A stretch of 64,000 nucleotides of DNA from an archaeon (GTDB lineage Archaea; Nanobdellota; Nanobdellia; Pacearchaeales; GW2011-AR1): assembly GCA_018651605.1 (NCBI GenBank), contig JABIDS010000013.1, positions 64,717 through 128,716 on the forward strand, given 5' to 3'. Below are positions 9,115 through 51,488 of the stretch, in pieces. A program made the position numbers and the translations under genes. The notes below the pieces were generated by a model, which was not told the origin of the DNA, did no database searches, and saw nothing but the letters and a program-made list of their open reading frames with translations. Numbering within the stretch: position 1 is the stretch's first letter; each line of letters starts with the position of its first letter.

Positions 9115-9699
9115 ATGGTAGAGTTAGAAGTTGAAGTTAAGGTTCGTTTGAGTGATAAGGAGGCTGTTGAGCTTCGGAAAAAGATAAAGAAGATTGCGAA
9201 TTTTAAGAAAAAGGAATCTCGGACTGATGATTATTTTGCGATTAAGAGAAAGGGTTATCCTAAGAAGGCGTTTCGGATTCGGAAGGCTGGGGGCGAGTAT
9301 GTTGTTAATTTTAAAAAATGGTTGACGCAGTATTGGGATAGGCAAATTGTTGTTAAGGAAGAGTATGAGTTTAAGACGTTGCATCCTGATGAGTTTCTTG
9401 TTTTGATGGATGATTTGGGTTTTAAACAATGGTTAAAGAAATTTAAGACAACAGAGAAATATACTTATAAGAAAGATAAGAGGGTGATTATTGAGATTAA
9501 TTTTGTGAGGCATCTTGGTTATTTTATGGAGATGGAATATATTGCTAAGCCTAGTGAGATGATGAAAGCGAAGAAGAAATTGAGAGATGTTTTGGATGAG
9601 TTGGGGATTCGGCAGAAACAGGTTACGAATAAGGGTTATACTAAAATGCTTTGGGATAAGGGTAAGAGGGGAAGGAAGTATTTTGTGGATGTTGGTTAA
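9115..9699 (+). CDS. CYTH-domain protein (triphosphate tunnel metalloenzyme / class IV adenylate cyclase family)
   Basis: The N-terminal MVELEVEVKVRL carries the ExExK signature. Its size of about 190 aa and basic beta-strand pattern are typical of the family. Confidence 0.7.
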   Translation: MVELEVEVKVRLSDKEAVELRKKIKKIANFKKKESRTDDYFAIKRKGYPKKAFRIRKAGGEYVVNFKKWLTQYWDRQIVVKEEYEFKTLHPDEFLVLMDDLGFKQWLKKFKTTEKYTYKKDKRVIIEINFVRHLGYFMEMEYIAKPSEMMKAKKKLRDVLDELGIRQKQVTNKGYTKMLWDKGKRGRKYFVDVG

Positions 9700-11650
9700 A
9701 ATTGTGAAATACATTACAAAAAAAGGTGGGAAGTATTGGCCTTCGGCTGAGATGAAAAAGATCGCATGGGTTAGTGATAATAAGATTTATGCTAAGGCTT
9801 TGAAAAATCCTGTTAAGTTTTGGGAGGGTTTGGCTAAGGAAGGGATTAGTTGGGAGTCTAAATGGAAGAAGGGTTATGAGGAGAAGTTACCTTATTTTAA
9901 ATGGTTTGTTGGTGGAAAGTTGAATTTTTCTGTTAATTGTTTGGATAGACATTTGGAGAAGAAAGGAGATAAGATTGCTTTGACTTGGATTCCTGAACCT
10001 TTAGAGGAGAAGTCAGTAAAACTGACATATAGAAGTTTACATTCTAAAGTTTGTAAATTTGCAAATGTTCTTAGAGGGTTTGGAGTTAAGAAGGGTGATG
10101 TTGTTGCTGTTTATTTGCCAATGATTCCTGAGGCTTTGATTACAATGTTGGCATGTGCAAGGATTGGTGCGATTCATTCTGTTGTTTTTAGTGCTTTTGC
10201 TGCTGATGCTCTTAAGGCACGAATTGAAGATGGTTCTGCTAAAGTTTTGGTTACTGCTGATGGTTATTATCGTCGTGGTAAGAAGGTGAGTTTAATTGAA
10301 AAGGCGAAGAAGGGGAGTAAGGGGACTAGTGTTGAGAAAGTTGTAGTTGTTAATAGGCTTGGAGGTTCTGTGAAAGGTTCTAAATTTGTGGATTTTAATT
10401 CTGTTTTGGAGAGTGCTGATGAAGAGTGTAAGCCAGAGATTATGAAATCAGAGGATACGCTTTTTATTTTGTATACTTCTGGTACTACTGGAAAGCCGAA
10501 GGGCGTGATTCATGATACTGGAGGTTATGCTGTTCAGGCATATTGGACTACGAAGTGGGATTTTAATTTGCATGATGATGATGATGTAATGTGGTGTACT
10601 GCGGATGTGGGGTGGGTTACTGGACATACATATGCTTTTTATGGGCCGTTGTTGAATGGTGGGACAAGTTTGATTTATGAAGGGAGTCCTGATTTTCCTG
10701 ACTTTTCTCGTTGGTGGAAAATTATTAAGGAGAATAATGTTAGTGTTTTTTATACTGCACCTACTGCGATTAGAATGTTTATGAAGTCTGGTGAGAAATT
10801 TATTAAGTCTAAGGATTTGGAGAGTTTGCGTGTTTTGGGAACAGTTGGTGAGCCAATTGATAATGATGCATGGAATTGGTATTTGGAGAAGATAGGTGGT
10901 GGAAGGTGCCCGATTATTGATACTTGGTGGCAGACTGAAACTGGTGGGACTTTGATTACTGCTTTGCCTGGAATTGGACCTTTTGTTCCGACTGTTGCAG
11001 GTATGAGTTTTCCTGGTGTTCAGCATATTATTGTAGATGATAAAGGTGTTGAGAAAAAGAAAGGGGAATTAGGTTTTTTGGTTCAGAAAAGTCCGTTTGC
11101 TCCTGGAATGTTGCATGGTGTTTATAAGAATCATAAGAAATATGTTGAGACTTATTGGAGATTTTGGAAGAAATTTAAGAAGCCTTACTATGATAGTAGT
11201 GATGGAGCTTTTGTTAATAGGGATGGTTTGATTAGGATTACTGGGCGGACTGATGATGTTATGAAAGTTGCAGGGCACCGGATGTCTACTGCTGAGTTGG
11301 AAGATGCTATTAATGTGCATAAAAAAGTTAATGAGTGTGCGGTTGTTCCGATTCCTCATAAGATTAAGGGCGAGGTTCCTGTTGCGTTTGTTGTTTTGAA
11401 ATCTGGTGAGGGTAGTGAGGAATTGATTGCTGGGTTGAAGAAGCATGTTGATAATAAATTAGGGCCAACTGCTCGTCCTGCTGTTGTTTATTTTGTTAAA
11501 GATTTGCCTAAGACTCGAAGTGGAAAGATTATGAGAAGGATTTTAAAAAGTTTGTTAGCTAAAGAAGAGCCGAAAGGTTTGATGACTCTGGTTAATCCTG
11601 ATTCTGTGGAGGCTGTGAAGGGGGTGATTGGAGATGTTAAGGGAGAGTAG
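9689..11650 (+). CDS. acs: acetyl-CoA synthetase (AMP-forming)
   Basis: Contains YTSGTTGKPKG, WWQTETGG and KTRSGKIMRR, together with the Acs-specific N-terminus (YWPSAEMKK...FWEGLAKE). The ORF track start at 9587 lies inside the upstream gene; ATG 9689 or GTG 9704 is more likely. Confidence 0.9.
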   Translation: MLVKIVKYITKKGGKYWPSAEMKKIAWVSDNKIYAKALKNPVKFWEGLAKEGISWESKWKKGYEEKLPYFKWFVGGKLNFSVNCLDRHLEKKGDKIALTWIPEPLEEKSVKLTYRSLHSKVCKFANVLRGFGVKKGDVVAVYLPMIPEALITMLACARIGAIHSVVFSAFAADALKARIEDGSAKVLVTADGYYRRGKKVSLIEKAKKGSKGTSVEKVVVVNRLGGSVKGSKFVDFNSVLESADEECKPEIMKSEDTLFILYTSGTTGKPKGVIHDTGGYAVQAYWTTKWDFNLHDDDDVMWCTADVGWVTGHTYAFYGPLLNGGTSLIYEGSPDFPDFSRWWKIIKENNVSVFYTAPTAIRMFMKSGEKFIKSKDLESLRVLGTVGEPIDNDAWNWYLEKIGGGRCPIIDTWWQTETGGTLITALPGIGPFVPTVAGMSFPGVQHIIVDDKGVEKKKGELGFLVQKSPFAPGMLHGVYKNHKKYVETYWRFWKKFKKPYYDSSDGAFVNRDGLIRITGRTDDVMKVAGHRMSTAELEDAINVHKKVNECAVVPIPHKIKGEVPVAFVVLKSGEGSEELIAGLKKHVDNKLGPTARPAVVYFVKDLPKTRSGKIMRRILKSLLAKEEPKGLMTLVNPDSVEAVKGVIGDVKGE

Positions 11651-12062
11651 TTTTAAAAAAGCACAATCAGGGATTATTGTAACAATTTTAATTGTGTTAT
11701 TGGTTTTGGGAAGTTTTGTTGTTCTTTGGAATATTGTTTATATGGTTGTTAGAGATAGTAGTGATGAAATTGGAATTGAAGGTTTTGTAACTAGGTTTGA
11801 AATTGAAGGTGTTAGGTTGGATAGTGGAAATGTTTATGTTAATGTTCATCGTGTTAGTGGAGATGAAGTTGTTAAGGAATTGAAGTTTGTTTTTTATTTG
11901 GATGGTGATGTTGTTGGTGAAGGTTCTAAGAGTGCAGATATTCCTAGTGAGATGGAGAGTGAGGAGTATGAGTTTTTGGGTATGGTAGTAGATATGGTTG
12001 GAGTTATTCCTGTTTTTGAGGATGGGAGTTTTGGGTTGGAGGTTGAGGGTGTTGTTGGGTGA
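11628..12062 (+). CDS. pilin-like protein with class III signal peptide
   Basis: FKKA-QSGIIVTILIVLLVLG: a basic stretch, a small residue, Q at +1, then a hydrophobic helix. Confidence 0.5.
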   Translation: MEMLRESSFKKAQSGIIVTILIVLLVLGSFVVLWNIVYMVVRDSSDEIGIEGFVTRFEIEGVRLDSGNVYVNVHRVSGDEVVKELKFVFYLDGDVVGEGSKSADIPSEMESEEYEFLGMVVDMVGVIPVFEDGSFGLEVEGVVG

Positions 12063-12091
12063 GAGAGTTATTTTATAATATTTTCCACCTC

Positions 12092-12276
12092 CCTATAAAC
12101 ATCATTTTATTTCATTGCCCGCCCTACTCGTTCAAGCATTATCTCCATCTTCCTATAAACATCATTTTATTTCATTGCCCGCCCACCCTCCCTGAATGAA
12201 TGATGTTTAATTCCCCTTCCTTTTTAATTGATAATGCTTAAACTCGCCCTCCCTGAATGAATGATGTTTAATTCCC
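12092..12276. repeat. composite nested palindrome built from two 33-nt and two 30-nt direct repeats
   Basis: DR1 CCTATAAACATCATTTTATTTCATTGCCCGCCC lies at 12092-12124 and 12152-12184. DR2 CCCTCCCTGAATGAATGATGTTTAATTCCC lies at 12186-12215 and 12247-12276. AAACATCATT pairs with AATGATGTTT, and CAAGCATTATC pairs with GATAATGCTTA. The central loop carries CCCGCCCACCCTCCC (12178-12192). Confidence 0.85.
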
Positions 12277-12396
12277 ATTATTTATCTTATTATTAATTTT
12301 TAAATATGATTTGATAATTTTAATCTCCGCAATCTTTAAATAACCTTATTGTATTTTTCTTTTATTGCAGTTCTTTTTTTGAATTGTCTGATAAAA

Positions 12397-13968
12397 ATGA
12401 GAGTCAATATTTTAATTGGAGGAAAAGCTGGACAAGGAATTAATAAGGTATCTGAGATTGTGTCGAGAGTTTTGACTGGAAGTGGTTATTATACTTTTAA
12501 TTATCGGGATTATCCGTCTTTGATTCGGGGTGGACATAATTTTAATGTTTTGTCTGTTAGTGATGCACGGGTTGGGAGTGTAGAGAGTAAACTGGATATT
12601 GTTGTTGCGATGGATGATAAAACTGTTGAGTTGCATAAGGGTGAGTTGAAGAAGGATGGGATTGTTATCATGTTTGAAGAGTTTAAATCTTTGGGAAGGA
12701 ATTTGAATATTGCTTTGTCTGGAGCTTTGATTAAGATTTTAGGAATTGATTTGAGTGTTTTGATTGAAGAGATTAAAAGTCAGTTTAAGGAAAGTGATGA
12801 GGCTGTTGTTGCTGCTGAAAAGGGTTTTGAAAGTCAGGAAAAGAAATTTGATTTTAAAAAGTTGGGTGGAGAGATTGAGATAATGCATGGGAGTAAGGCT
12901 GTTGCTTTGGGTGCTGTTGAGAGTGATATTGATTTGTATTTGGCTTATCCTATGACTCCTGCGACAGGTGTTATGCATGAGTTGGCTGCTAGGCAATATG
13001 ATGGGAAGTTTATGGTTTTTCAACCTGAGAGTGAGGTTGCAACTGTTAATGCTGGATTGGGTGCTTCGTTTGCTGGTGCTAAGGTTATGATTGGTAGTAG
13101 TGGGGGTGGTTATGATTTAATGACAGAAGGTTTGTCTCTGCAAGGTATTTCTGAAATTCCTTTAGTTGTTTATTTGGCTAGTCGTCCTGGGCCTGGGACA
13201 GGTGTTCCAACTTATAGTTTACAAAATGATTTGGATGTTGCTTTACGAGGAGGGCATGGTGAGTTTCCTAGGGTTGTGATTGCTCCAGGAGATCCTATTG
13301 AATGTGTTGGTAGTGTGAATGAGTGTATGTATTTGAGTGAGAAGTTTGGTTGTCTAAGTATTTTGTTGAGTGATAAACATTTGGCTGAAAGTGAATTTAG
13401 TTTTGATAAGAAATGTTATGATAAGAAGGTTAGTAAATTGTTGAAGGTTGATGTTATTCGGAAGATTCCTGGAGAAGGAATTGTTAAAGCTTCTTCTTAT
13501 GAACATGATGCTGATGGGAATACTAGTGAAAGCGCTGAGTTGTGTCGGAAGAATGCTGATGCTCGTGTTGCTAAGTATGGAAAGATTAAGAAAGAGTGTG
13601 AAAAATTTGAGATGGTTAAGTTGTATGGTCCTAAGGATGCTAAGAATTTGGTGATTGGTTGGGGTTCTACTAAGAGTGTTATTTTGGATGCTTTGGATTC
13701 TATTGATGGTTCTATTAAAAATGGGAAAGGTGATTGGAAGTTTTTGCAGGTTTTGTATATGAAGCCTTTGTCTTCGAAGATTCGGGAAGAGATTGAGAAG
13801 GTTTCAGAGGGGGGAGGGAATGTTATTTTAGTTGAGCAAAATGTTACTGGGCAGTTGGGTAGATTGATTAGAGAGAAGACAGGATTGAAATTAAATAATA
13901 GGATTTTGAAATATGATAGTCGTCCTTTTTATTGTGATGAGTTGAAGGAGGAGTTATTGAAATTTTAA
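12397..13968 (+). CDS. 2-oxoacid:ferredoxin oxidoreductase, fused gamma-alpha subunit
   Basis: The N-terminal gamma module reads MRVNILIGGKAGQGINKVSEIV...YPSLIRGGHN. The alpha module reads GSKAVALGAVESDIDLYLAYPMTPATGVMHELA. This is the two-subunit OFOR architecture. The ORF track start at 12349 is probably too long. Confidence 0.85.
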   Translation: MRVNILIGGKAGQGINKVSEIVSRVLTGSGYYTFNYRDYPSLIRGGHNFNVLSVSDARVGSVESKLDIVVAMDDKTVELHKGELKKDGIVIMFEEFKSLGRNLNIALSGALIKILGIDLSVLIEEIKSQFKESDEAVVAAEKGFESQEKKFDFKKLGGEIEIMHGSKAVALGAVESDIDLYLAYPMTPATGVMHELAARQYDGKFMVFQPESEVATVNAGLGASFAGAKVMIGSSGGGYDLMTEGLSLQGISEIPLVVYLASRPGPGTGVPTYSLQNDLDVALRGGHGEFPRVVIAPGDPIECVGSVNECMYLSEKFGCLSILLSDKHLAESEFSFDKKCYDKKVSKLLKVDVIRKIPGEGIVKASSYEHDADGNTSESAELCRKNADARVAKYGKIKKECEKFEMVKLYGPKDAKNLVIGWGSTKSVILDALDSIDGSIKNGKGDWKFLQVLYMKPLSSKIREEIEKVSEGGGNVILVEQNVTGQLGRLIREKTGLKLNNRILKYDSRPFYCDELKEELLKF

Positions 13969-31213: not shown

Positions 31214-31334
31214 GCTTTGTTGAAAATCTTTTCTCCCTCCTTTTTAAAATTTATTTTATTATGGTTGCACCCGCCCAGCCCACCCTTAAATGAATAAATT
31301 TTAGCCACACCCTTTTAGACTTTTTCAACAAAGC
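31214..31334. repeat. long two-tier hairpin with a C-rich four-tract loop
   Basis: The outer stem pairs GCTTTGTTGAAAA (31214-31226) with TTTTCAACAAAGC (31322-31334). The inner stem pairs AAAATTTATT (31246-31255) with AATAAATTTT (31293-31302). The loop carries CCCGCCCAGCCCACCC (31270-31285). Confidence 0.8.
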
Positions 31335-33127: not shown

Positions 33128-33170
33128 GGGCAGAAAGGGAAAGGTGACAACCGGCTTTCTGCGGAGGTGG
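33128..33170 (-). repeat. CCACC-box hairpin, inverted copy
   Basis: The reverse complement reads CCACCTCCGCAGAAAGCCGGTTGTCACCTTTCCCTTTCTGCCC. The stem pairs GCAGAAAG (33130-33137) with CTTTCTGC (33155-33162). Confidence 0.7.
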
Positions 33171-38525: not shown

Positions 38526-38625
38526 CACCACCTGCGAAAAGCCGTCTGTCGACTTTCCCTTTTCGCCCCGTGCAGTTTTGAAAAGTTGTTAGAGAATTAT
38601 TTTATGAAGATGAGTAGATTGGTTG
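38526..38625 (+). repeat. CCACC-box hairpin plus tail repeat, copy H
   Basis: CCACCACCT, then stem GCGAAAAG (38534-38541) / CTTTTCGC (38559-38566), then GCAGTTTTGAAAAGTTG...ATGAAGATGAGTAG. It lies between two minus-strand genes. Confidence 0.75.
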
Positions 38626-49728: not shown

Positions 49729-51488
49729 CAATAATAACATTTGATAGAAAAGAATTGGAAAAGAAAATTGGAAAGATAGATGAGAAGATGGAGGAAAGGA
49801 TAAGTATGTTTGGGACTGTAGTTGAGGATTTGACTGAGGATGAAGTTAGTGTTGAGGTTTTTCCGAATCGTCCTGATTTGCTTTCGTTTGGTGGTTTTGT
49901 TCGTGGTTTGCTTGGGTTTTTTGGGAAGGGTAAGGGTTTGAAAAATTATAATGTGAATAAACCTTTGGAGAATTATAATGTTGTTATTGATAAATCTGTT
50001 AAATCTGTTCGTCCATTTACAGCATGTGCTATTGTTAAGAATTTGAAGTTGGATGATGCTCGGATTAAGGAGATGATTGATATTCAGGAAAAGTTGCATG
50101 GTTCTTATGGGCGGAATCGTAAGAAGTTGGCGATTGGGATTTATCCTTTGGAAGAGATTAAGTTGCCGATTAAGTTTTTGGCTCGTAAACCTGAGGAGAT
50201 TAAGTTTCAGCCGTTGGAGTTTCCTCGTGCGATTAATGGTAGGCAGATTTTAAGTCAACATCCTGCAGGAAGGGAGTATGGAGATTTGTTGAAAGGTGCT
50301 GAGGTTTTTCCAATTTTTGAAGATGCGAATGGAGAGATTTTAAGTATGCCGCCTATTATTAATTCTGAGAAAACTGGGAAGGTTGGTTTTGAGACAAAGG
50401 ATGTTTTTATTGAGTGTTCTGGTTTTAATTTAGATTATTTGAAAAAGACTTTGAATATGATTGTTTGTGCTTTGGCTGATATGGGTGGAGAGATTTATGA
50501 GATGGAGATTGTAGATAAGAGGAAGTGGGTTTCTCCTGATTTGTCTAGTGATAAGATGGAGTTTTCTTTAGATGATTTGAATAAGACTTTGGGTTTGGAG
50601 TTGAGTGTTAAAGAGGTTAAGGGTTATTTGGGTAAAATGGGGATTGGATATGGGGAGGGGGTTGCTTTGGTTCCTTGTTATAGGACTGATATTTTGCATG
50701 AGATTGATTTGAGTGAAGAGGTTGCTATTGCTTATGGTTATGAGAATTTTGAGGCAGAGATTCCTGAGATTTCAACTATTGGTTGTGAGGATAAGGTTGC
50801 TGTTTTGAAAAGGAGAGTTGATGAGATTTTGGCTGGATTGGGTTTGTTAGAGGTTTCTAGTTATCATTTGTCTACTAAAGATGTTCAGTTTAAGAAGATT
50901 TGTAAAAAGGGTTTTTTGGATGAGGTAATCGAAGTTTTGGATTCTAAGACTGAGAATAATATTTTGAGGACTTCGTTGTTTGCTAATAGTATGAAAATTT
51001 TGAGTGAGAATTCTGATGCTTCGTATCCGCAGAAGATTTTTGAATTGGGGAAGGTTTTTGGGAAATGTGAAGGTGGTTCTGGGGGTGAGAGTGGTGATGG
51101 TTCGCAATTACAACGCCCAATACCCCACCCACCCACCCGTATTGGGGGCGTTGAAATTGCTACTAGTGGTGTTGGAGGTATTGTTGAGAAAGAGAGATTG
51201 TGTATTTCGTTGTGTGGTGAGGGAATGAATTTTACAGAGTTGAAACAGGGTTTGGATTATTTGATGAGGATGTTGGGGGTGGAGTATTCTTTGGAAGAGG
51301 TGGAGAATGAGTCGTTTATTGTGGGGCGGTGTGGGAGTGTTGTGGTTGGTTCTAAAGGTGAAGAAGGCGTTGGTGAGAAGAGGGTTGTGGGTGTTATGGG
51401 GGAGGTGGGGTTGAGTGTGTTGAAAAATAATAAGATTAAGATGCCGGTGGTTAGTTTGGAGTTGGATTTGAGTTGTTTTGTAGAATAA
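49716..51488 (+). CDS. pheT: phenylalanine--tRNA ligase beta subunit (archaeal type) with a Gly/Pro-rich insertion
   Basis: Contains VEVFPNRPDLLS, the B3/4 and B5 domain patterns, and IFELGKVF. It overlaps pheS by 13 nt. The insertion lies at about 51063-51190. Confidence 0.9.
   Translation: MEKMTIITFDRKELEKKIGKIDEKMEERISMFGTVVEDLTEDEVSVEVFPNRPDLLSFGGFVRGLLGFFGKGKGLKNYNVNKPLENYNVVIDKSVKSVRPFTACAIVKNLKLDDARIKEMIDIQEKLHGSYGRNRKKLAIGIYPLEEIKLPIKFLARKPEEIKFQPLEFPRAINGRQILSQHPAGREYGDLLKGAEVFPIFEDANGEILSMPPIINSEKTGKVGFETKDVFIECSGFNLDYLKKTLNMIVCALADMGGEIYEMEIVDKRKWVSPDLSSDKMEFSLDDLNKTLGLELSVKEVKGYLGKMGIGYGEGVALVPCYRTDILHEIDLSEEVAIAYGYENFEAEIPEISTIGCEDKVAVLKRRVDEILAGLGLLEVSSYHLSTKDVQFKKICKKGFLDEVIEVLDSKTENNILRTSLFANSMKILSENSDASYPQKIFELGKVFGKCEGGSGGESGDGSQLQRPIPHPPTRIGGVEIATSGVGGIVEKERLCISLCGEGMNFTELKQGLDYLMRMLGVEYSLEEVENESFIVGRCGSVVVGSKGEEGVGEKRVVGVMGEVGLSVLKNNKIKMPVVSLELDLSCFVE
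51116..51146. repeat. hairpin with a (CCCA)3CCC loop inside the pheT coding sequence
   Basis: The stem pairs CCCAATAC (51116-51123) with GTATTGGG (51139-51146). The loop is CCCACCCACCCACCC (51124-51138). In frame it is translated as ...RPIPHPPTRIGG... Confidence 0.8.

Follow-up and report, generated by a model that had tools for sequence, protein, structure and literature searches.

The segment at positions 12084–12276 of the window, meaning the whole stretch of DNA analysed here (64,000 nucleotides, C23:64717–128716), is a three-layer concentric nest built from a lineage-specific family of hairpin repeats, which are termed C-loop hairpins below. The family is multi-copy, conserved in structure and locked to one strand, and its units insert at new sites, including sites within genes, and nest at the centre of the loop. 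Because they are multi-copy, patchily distributed among species, absent from orthologous sites and present in frame in essential genes, the units behave as small non-autonomous mobile, or apparently selfish, DNA. They are probably best read as REP/RPE/MITE-like mobile hairpins that nest in their own loops and are tied to single-stranded DNA at the replication fork.

Small palindromic repeats of the REP, RPE and MITE kinds are known mainly from bacteria. The DPANN-type archaeon described here offers a compact case, with about 15 loci in about 1 Mb and unusually clean features: a structure-conserved hairpin with a putative G-quadruplex or i-motif loop, strand polarity, in-frame insertions in essential genes and self-nesting at one loop position. 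No published description of such elements in DPANN or other archaea was found in the literature. The genome is a fragmented MAG of about 1.0 Mb in 24 contigs (32% GC, 84% complete), and it carries an archaeal SSU rRNA.

A three-layer nest of hairpins

The composite is made of duplicated modules. A preliminary description, prepared from the nucleotide letters alone, had noticed direct repeats of 33 nt and 30 nt, and a repeat search confirmed both and extended them to 41 nt and 33 nt. The longer pair lies at 12084–12124 and 12144–12184 (39/41 identical, 95%), and the shorter pair at 12186–12218 and 12247–12279 (32/33 identical, 97%). The inverted repeats are of two kinds. Repeat a has the sequence TAAACATCATT at 12096–12106 and 12156–12166 and is 100% complementary, 11/11 in each case, to AATGATGTTTA at 12199–12209 and 12260–12270. 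Repeat b consists of GTTCAAGCATTATC (12130–12143) and GATAATGCTTAAAC (12230–12243), which are complementary at 13 of 14 positions (93%). The result is three nested stems of 11/11, 13/14 and 11/11 bp.

The nested pairing that had been proposed for these arms, A1(B(A2 loop a2')b')a1', is exactly the minimum-energy fold of the + strand. This fold reaches −31.7 kcal/mol, compared to −13.0 ± 3.0 kcal/mol for 200 shuffled sequences (z = −6.3), none of which folded as well, and the corresponding value for the − strand is z = −4.8. All of the C-tracts (CCACCTCCC, CCCGCCC, CCCGCCCACCCTCCC and CCCTCCC) lie on the + strand and all are unpaired in the fold, also in agreement with the preliminary description. 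Its picture of two hairpins, one inserted into the other or duplicated, is essentially right, except that the layers number three instead of two: the outer a hairpin has its loop centre split by the b stem, which in turn encloses a complete inner a hairpin.

Read along the + strand, the composite totals 193 nt. It begins with a C-rich terminal box, TCCACCTCCC followed by TA (12084–12095), which lies within the 41-nt direct repeat and recurs at 12144–12155 before the inner copy. The left arm of the outer a stem (12096–12106, paired with 12260–12270) is followed by the outer left half-loop (12107–12124), in which TTATTTCATTG and CCCGCCC supply C-tracts 1 and 2; this half-loop is unpaired and is the same as the inner one at 12167–12184. 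Between C-tracts 2 and 3 the outer loop is split by a 122-nt insert (12125–12246), as indicated by the rejoined flanks and by junctions that are shared with other loci. The insert contains, in order, TACTCG, the b stem, the complete inner element, TTTTTAATT, the b' stem and ACTCG.

Within this insert, the box that precedes the inner unit after the b stem reads TCCATCTTCC-TA. The complete inner a hairpin occupies 12153–12212, and CCCGCCCACCCTCCC lies in its loop at 12178–12192. The loop reads TTATTTCATTG-CCCGCCC-A-CCCTCCC-TGAATG, and the hairpin scores 79.6 bits (E = 8e-17) against covariance model R1. Between the inner unit and the b' stem the sequence is ATTCCCCTTCC-TTTTTAATT. On the far side of the insert, the outer right half-loop (12247–12259) consists of CCCTCCC, with C-tracts 3 and 4, and TGAATG, and is a direct repeat of 12186–12198; the right arm of the outer a stem and a right terminal ATTCCC complete the composite (12260–12276). 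When 12084–12124 is joined to 12247–12279, a simple unit results that is 95–97% identical to the inner one. Because the rejoined flanks recreate a simple unit, the split in the outer unit falls exactly on the lone spacer base that separates C-tracts 2 and 3.

The − strand carries the G-quadruplex motif GGGAGGGTGGGCGGG. With the gquad option enabled, ViennaRNA predicts a 3-layer quadruplex at the innermost tip on this strand, so that the hairpin would be capped by a quadruplex according to the model.

It had been pointed out that the structure would lose weight if it collapsed to a single module on re-assembly, and this is not what happens. The ENA assembly ERZ4200974 (locus L053) contains the duplicated left half, with the same upstream gene, both left modules, the middle stem, the centre and the first right arm, after which the contig ends. 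Since the left half is reproduced there, the duplication is not an artefact of a single assembly. In a third assembly the contig ends within the first module. Composites of this type evidently break short-read assemblies. At two contig ends of the own genome (G000), namely the 3' end of C5 (13470–13535) and the 5' end of C17 (1–129), lie the right-arm half and the left-arm half, respectively, of a single deeper nest with at least four layers; these contigs are probably adjacent, with the assembly breaking inside the composite.

A strand-locked repeat family, also within genes

The composite belongs to a family that is dispersed over the genome. BLAST searches of the own genome recovered composites of the same build at C11:34865 (85% identity over 176 nt), C1:2538 (83%) and C11:38723, as well as a broken composite with fragments at the start of C17 and the end of C5. 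A scan for runs of C-tracts with flanking inverted repeats found 15 complete hairpin loci with C-tract loops in the genome of about 1 Mb. The unit has a stem of 10–14 bp, which is variable and co-varying, and a loop core of four CCC tracts, often with C-rich terminal boxes. On the other strand, the four-CCC core reads as GGGNGGGNGGGNGGG, a G-quadruplex motif.

Two types of unit can be distinguished. In type 1, the loop consists of TTATTTYRKTTGCA or CATTG, four CCC tracts and TRAATG. Type 2 has a longer stem and the arrangement ...GCATTATC-AATCCCTATTAA with four CCC tracts. The middle b stem of the composite is of the type-2 kind, and the same stem type also closes the in-gene hairpins at C23:46566, 50008 and 53757. 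The window holds an intergenic, simple type-1 member at 31242–31306 on the + strand (75.2 bits against R1, E = 1e-15), and one JGI contig that carries the neighbour of this copy has identical gene spacing, with no sign of an empty allele. A type-2 member with a long stem and a CCCACCCGTCCCACCC loop lies at 3045–3102 on the + strand, in the intergenic region between two − strand genes.

It is the structure of the unit that is conserved. When eight type-1 units are aligned, pairing in the 11-bp stem reaches 95%, and 7 of its 11 pairs show double compensatory changes, with far lower values in shuffle and slide controls. No one-sided changes of the G-U type were observed in the stems of these eight units. 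A covariance model built from the type-1 alignment gives 10 matches in the own genome. In 40 relatives, the same model gives weak matches of the same design in G009, G012 and G015 (three of 24 same-genus species). The strict non-homopolymer motif of four C3 tracts is found in 6 of the 41 species of the genus (G000, G012, G015, G016, G041 and G044), and the four-CCC matches that were inspected in other species are mostly hairpins too, often two-layered and with species-specific stems. Counts of C-tracts are inflated by long poly-C runs in the assemblies of several relatives, which resemble artefacts of sequencing or assembly (G015:C29:16910–16946, G053:C11:16399–16472, G045:C56:5355–5402 and G002:C159:25–54). 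Beyond the genus, the type-1 half-loop TTATTYCATTGCCCKCCC has 56 single, scattered matches in 596 Gb of genomes, in unrelated and mostly bacterial taxa, which corresponds to chance level, and it has no match in viral contigs.

The window also contains a further hairpin subfamily, at 1377–1430 (+), 38526–38570 (+) and 33128–33170 (−), with TTCCACCCC, a stem and CCG...CTTTCC. This subfamily starts with a CCACC box like that at the left end of the 12084–12276 element, which suggests that the terminal boxes are modules common to several repeat families of the genome.

The C-tract strand coincides with the locally G-rich strand at all 15 loci and in the composite at the contig ends. Three matches on the C-rich strand are chance, non-family matches, as base composition predicts. 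Orientation is unrelated to genes, and the intergenic copies have neighbours that are co-directional, divergent, convergent or doubly antisense. The GC skew of the contigs reaches |0.49|, with +0.41 for C23 and about +0.3 to +0.5 in the window. For an archaeon, a strand skew of this size is very strong. The mean is +0.48 for genes on the G-rich strand and +0.07 for those on the opposite strand, the latter value also being taken along the G-rich strand. Because these other-strand genes still reach +0.07, there is a strand component of about 0.27 besides the coding component. By analogy with bacterial skew, and from the skew only, the G-rich strand would be the leading-strand sequence and hence the template of the lagging strand. 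With the direction of replication read from the skew in this manner, the elements display the orientation bias of IS200/IS605-derived MITEs (PATEs), at 15/15 loci.

One third of the complete loci (5 of 15) are translated in frame within real genes, namely those for an ELP3-like radical SAM protein, a PLD-like protein, tgt, SMC and PheRS-beta. The C-tract strand is antisense to the host gene in four of these and sense in one (PheRS-beta). The SMC gene extends into the window on the − strand (1–1194), and its copy lies just before the window start, at C23:64527–64594, in the coiled coil or hinge region of the protein. It is part of a clean insertion of 43 aa (129 nt), which holds a type-1 unit with both CTCCACCCC boxes and is absent from all ten same-genus orthologues compared. 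The CTCCACCCC box resembles the left terminal box of the composite. These 9-mers were considered as a target duplication, a reading that was rejected because both copies lie inside the 43-aa insertion relative to the orthologues.

The copy in the PheRS-beta gene (pheT) lies at 51107–51157 on the + strand and is translated in frame as …QLQRPIPHPPTRIGGVEIA…. The insertion in this protein is about 31 aa long and is absent from all nine aligned orthologues; none of the 25 relatives has a match to this part of the query. In both SMC and PheRS-beta, a palindromic repeat is thus found in frame in a conserved gene and is lacking from the orthologues, in the manner of RPE.

Origin of the nest and of its strand polarity

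Several regularities bear on how the nest arose. The loop is split at the same position in at least four loci. The junctions read CCC-(T/A)ACTCG...AACTCG-CCCTCCC at the 12084–12276 composite, at C11:34865 and at C11:38723, and ACTCC/ACTCG at C1:2538, and the contig ends of C17 and C5 carry one half-junction each. The order of stem types is mirrored and the numbers of arms are balanced (3+3, 4+4, 2+2, 3+3). The same core, b around a, sits within two outer loop subtypes, CATTG-CCCGCCC (C23 and C11) and GGTTATA-CCCTCCC (C1). At C11:34865, C11:38723 and C1:2538, decayed outer stems surround intact inner ones, as would be expected if the inner layers were younger; only the 12084–12276 composite has all three layers intact. 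The split position, the mirrored order, the common core and the decay gradient favour insertion of whole units into loop centres.

On this reading, the nest would have been built by whole hairpin units that entered the loop centre of a resident unit at the one-base spacer that lies between C-tracts 2 and 3, and the loop centre would be the preferred target. Insertion at this spacer means that the next stem is flanked on both sides by two C-tracts of the layer into which it went. The corresponding 2+2 G-tracts of the G-strand might then preserve a quadruplex-duplex junction in each layer. This preference for one insertion site is best recorded at the nested locus. As for traces of the process itself, the hypothetical pre-insertion loop GCCCKCCCWACTCGCCCTCCC (with ACTCG) is absent from the own genome, and in metagenome contigs it has only three chance matches, in DNA of 63–75% GC. 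The flanking direct repeats differ: ACTCG, of 5 nt, borders the b layer at several loci, while SMC has TGATT (5 nt) and pheT has AGTGGTG (7 nt). These repeats may reflect chance or microhomology.

The layers of a locus share loop variants, and at 12084–12276 the outer and inner a copies are near-identical, so either the donor was local or the layers have been homogenised by conversion. Such local resemblance also speaks for growth of the palindrome in place without transposition, through replication slippage, gene conversion or template switching at a single hairpin locus, which we regard as possible but unlikely. The variants common to layers are locus-specific, with TTATTTCATTG and TGAATGA each present twice in C23, TTATTCCATTG in C11, TTATTTTATTG in C17 and AGAAAATG twice in C5. 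Here the outer and inner a copies are 95–100% identical to each other, compared to about 88% (counted by eye) to the inner copy of C11, and the stem variants all differ from one consensus by transitions only. However, the left and right half-loops are not complementary, so templating from arm to arm could not copy them, and a mirrored order with balanced arms is unlikely to result from independent tandem duplications in each arm. In addition, the b-around-a core is found within two different outer subtypes at different loci, and the copies in SMC and pheT clearly show that units of the family do enter new sites.

Insertion of whole mobile units, our preferred reading, calls for a reactive form and an agent. 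Every C-tract strand lies on the G-rich strand regardless of transcription, which suggests that the reactive form is probably a single strand, exposed at the replication fork and folded, as for IS200/IS605 and REP elements. Since searches found neither a Y1 transposase nor TnpB, the agent would be some unrecognised enzyme, or else polymerase template switching at C-tract microhomologies. Matches to TnpA/RAYT (PF01797) number zero in the own genome, which is 84% complete, in a search whose controls responded in 10 of 14 genomes. TnpB (PF07282) is absent from the own genome and from all other element-bearing genomes; it is present in three of 41 genus members, none of which has elements. A genome-wide scan of the stem motif for IS-sized inverted pairs gave output dominated by noise.

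A more radical proposal, which at present seems doubtful, is that the elements are transposase-free selfish DNA driven by the replication fork itself. In this proposal, synthesis would stall at the loop of a hairpin that lies on the exposed lagging-strand template and has a quadruplex or i-motif cap, and this hairpin, or a neighbour, would then be copied into the loop through template switching at C-tract microhomologies. Concentric nests would accumulate as a result, each with a 2+2 G-tract quadruplex-duplex junction. Such a process would explain the strand lock, the self-targeting, the missing G-T stem intermediates (by arm-to-arm correction) and the locus-specific similarity of layers. If true, fork-driven copying would be a new mode of propagation for prokaryotic repeats.

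The perfect strand lock (15/15) would also suit a replication-oriented DNA signal that is useful to the host, with a polarity like that of KOPS or Chi, for fork pausing, lagging-strand priming, or chromosome organisation or segregation. Conservation of the four-tract loop across species whose stems differ, and the quadruplex predicted at the tip, can be read in the same way. This explanation is nevertheless improbable, given that the motif is found in only 6 of 41 species of the genus and at low copy numbers, that lineage-specific insertions lie within the coding regions of essential genes, that outer layers decay, and that the copies show no obvious regularity in their placement along contigs. 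We give still less credence to a role as structured RNA, whether it terminated or stabilised the ACS/pilin-like transcript at its 3' end or acted on the OFOR operon as a 5' regulator or small RNA. The element does start 22 nt past the upstream stop codon and includes a T5 run (12221–12225), its RNA fold is very stable, and its sense-strand loops are C-rich (CCUCC-like). Yet orientation tracks the chromosome strand and not transcription, with copies in divergent promoters, antisense to both neighbours and in ORFs in both senses; the co-varying stems contain no G-U pairs; and the TATA-like box of OFOR lies downstream of the element and is kept in relatives that lack it. Nor is there an Rfam match: nothing overlaps the element in 11000–13500 at E ≤ 10, and the whole window at the gathering threshold yields tRNAs only.

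Readings as a C/D-box sRNA, a mini-CRISPR, a replication origin (ORB) or a promoter were considered and dropped, in view of the copies within ORFs, the roughly 15 dispersed loci, the gene-independent orientation and the lack of a cdc6/orc1 or cas context at the 12084–12276 locus.

Relation to known repeats and to the OFOR locus

Rickettsia palindromic elements (RPE) are palindromic repeats of about 100–150 bp that are found in intergenic regions and in frame in unrelated housekeeping genes (PMC10969869). C-loop hairpins resemble them in being short and palindromic, in being read through as an extra peptide, in having no associated transposase and in being lineage-specific. In contrast to RPE, however, they are archaeal, they conserve a four-C-tract (G-quadruplex) loop while their stems vary by compensatory changes, and they are strand-locked and concentrically nested. 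There is no sequence relationship between the two.

REP and BIME are small imperfect palindromes and their composite mosaic clusters, with RAYT (TnpA-REP) as a partner (PMC2817692). As in C-loop hairpins, structure is conserved over sequence, and both are thought to act as single-stranded hairpins. The architecture is different, in that a BIME consists of tandem REPs in alternating orientation, whereas C-loop composites are concentric nests on one strand. REPs are extragenic and number in the hundreds, compared to 15 loci, five of them in genes, for C-loop hairpins. Moreover, REP is defined by a RAYT gene, while PF01797 was not found in the 84% complete genome studied here.

The IS200/IS605-derived MITEs (PATEs) and IS608 have strand-specific hairpins whose orientation follows replication, the active strand being the lagging-strand template, and in this they resemble C-loop hairpins. 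These IS-derived elements lack classical terminal inverted repeats and a target duplication of fixed length, and C-loop hairpins seem to lack them as well. C-loop hairpins differ in that a single hairpin is central, where the IS-derived elements have two in subterminal positions, in that no target tetra- or pentanucleotide is defined for them, and in that TnpA and TnpB were not found with them. A further parallel is offered by IS1397 and ISKpn1, insertion sequences that target REP loops and are full-length IS with a transposase gene. In both cases insertion occurs into the loop of a resident palindromic repeat, and the palindrome is split by the insert. Here, however, the insert is a member of the same hairpin family, without coding capacity.

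Classical prokaryotic MITEs, such as SM1–SM4 of Sulfolobus, are small, non-coding, multi-copy and mostly intergenic (PMC10969869). C-loop hairpins share all of these properties, and their stems can be read as terminal inverted repeats. They differ in that the direct repeats at their flanks vary in length and that no parent IS sharing their ends emerged from the noisy stem-motif scan. A strand lock is also foreign to MITEs of the DDE type. Across these comparisons, C-loop hairpins qualify only as RPE-like in a descriptive sense, in which RPE-like denotes a functional class and not a homology family. The nested locus provides a concrete substrate for hairpin-quadruplex biophysics and for finding the mobilising activity.

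The composite lies between a pilin-like gene, with its stop at 12062, and the OFOR promoter region, with a TATA-like box at 12334–12343, where the preliminary description had placed it. The pilin-like ORF (11628–12062, + strand) encodes 144 aa with an N-terminal KKAQSG followed by a hydrophobic helix, and it has no Pfam match. The same protein is also found on two other ENA contigs, both of which break inside the composite. The TATA-like box, CTTTAAATAA on the + strand, lies downstream of the composite without overlapping it, and the OFOR ATG is at 12397. Close variants of the box, ACTTTAAATAA and CCTTTAAATAA, occur at the equivalent position 5' of OFOR in several relatives. CTTTAAATAA would be the promoter of the OFOR operon.

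Relatives had been expected to show one module versus two at this site, an expectation that was not borne out: no module is present in any of the 15 OFOR upstream regions compared, and the composite is absent upstream of OFOR in 15/15 relatives. In the closest relative, G016 (82% OFOR identity), a spacer of about 110 nt separates the acetyl-CoA synthetase (ACS) gene from OFOR, and both the pilin-like ORF and the element are missing; the two may have arrived jointly. An exact-protein look-up of OFOR gave no match. In 9587–12062 of the window, which was compared to L018 (G016:C6), the pilin-like ORF overlaps the end of the ACS gene. The likeliest role of the composite at the locus is that of neutral cargo within the pilin-like gene's 3' region; a transcript-end or insulator structure before an intact OFOR promoter would be the most that it provides.
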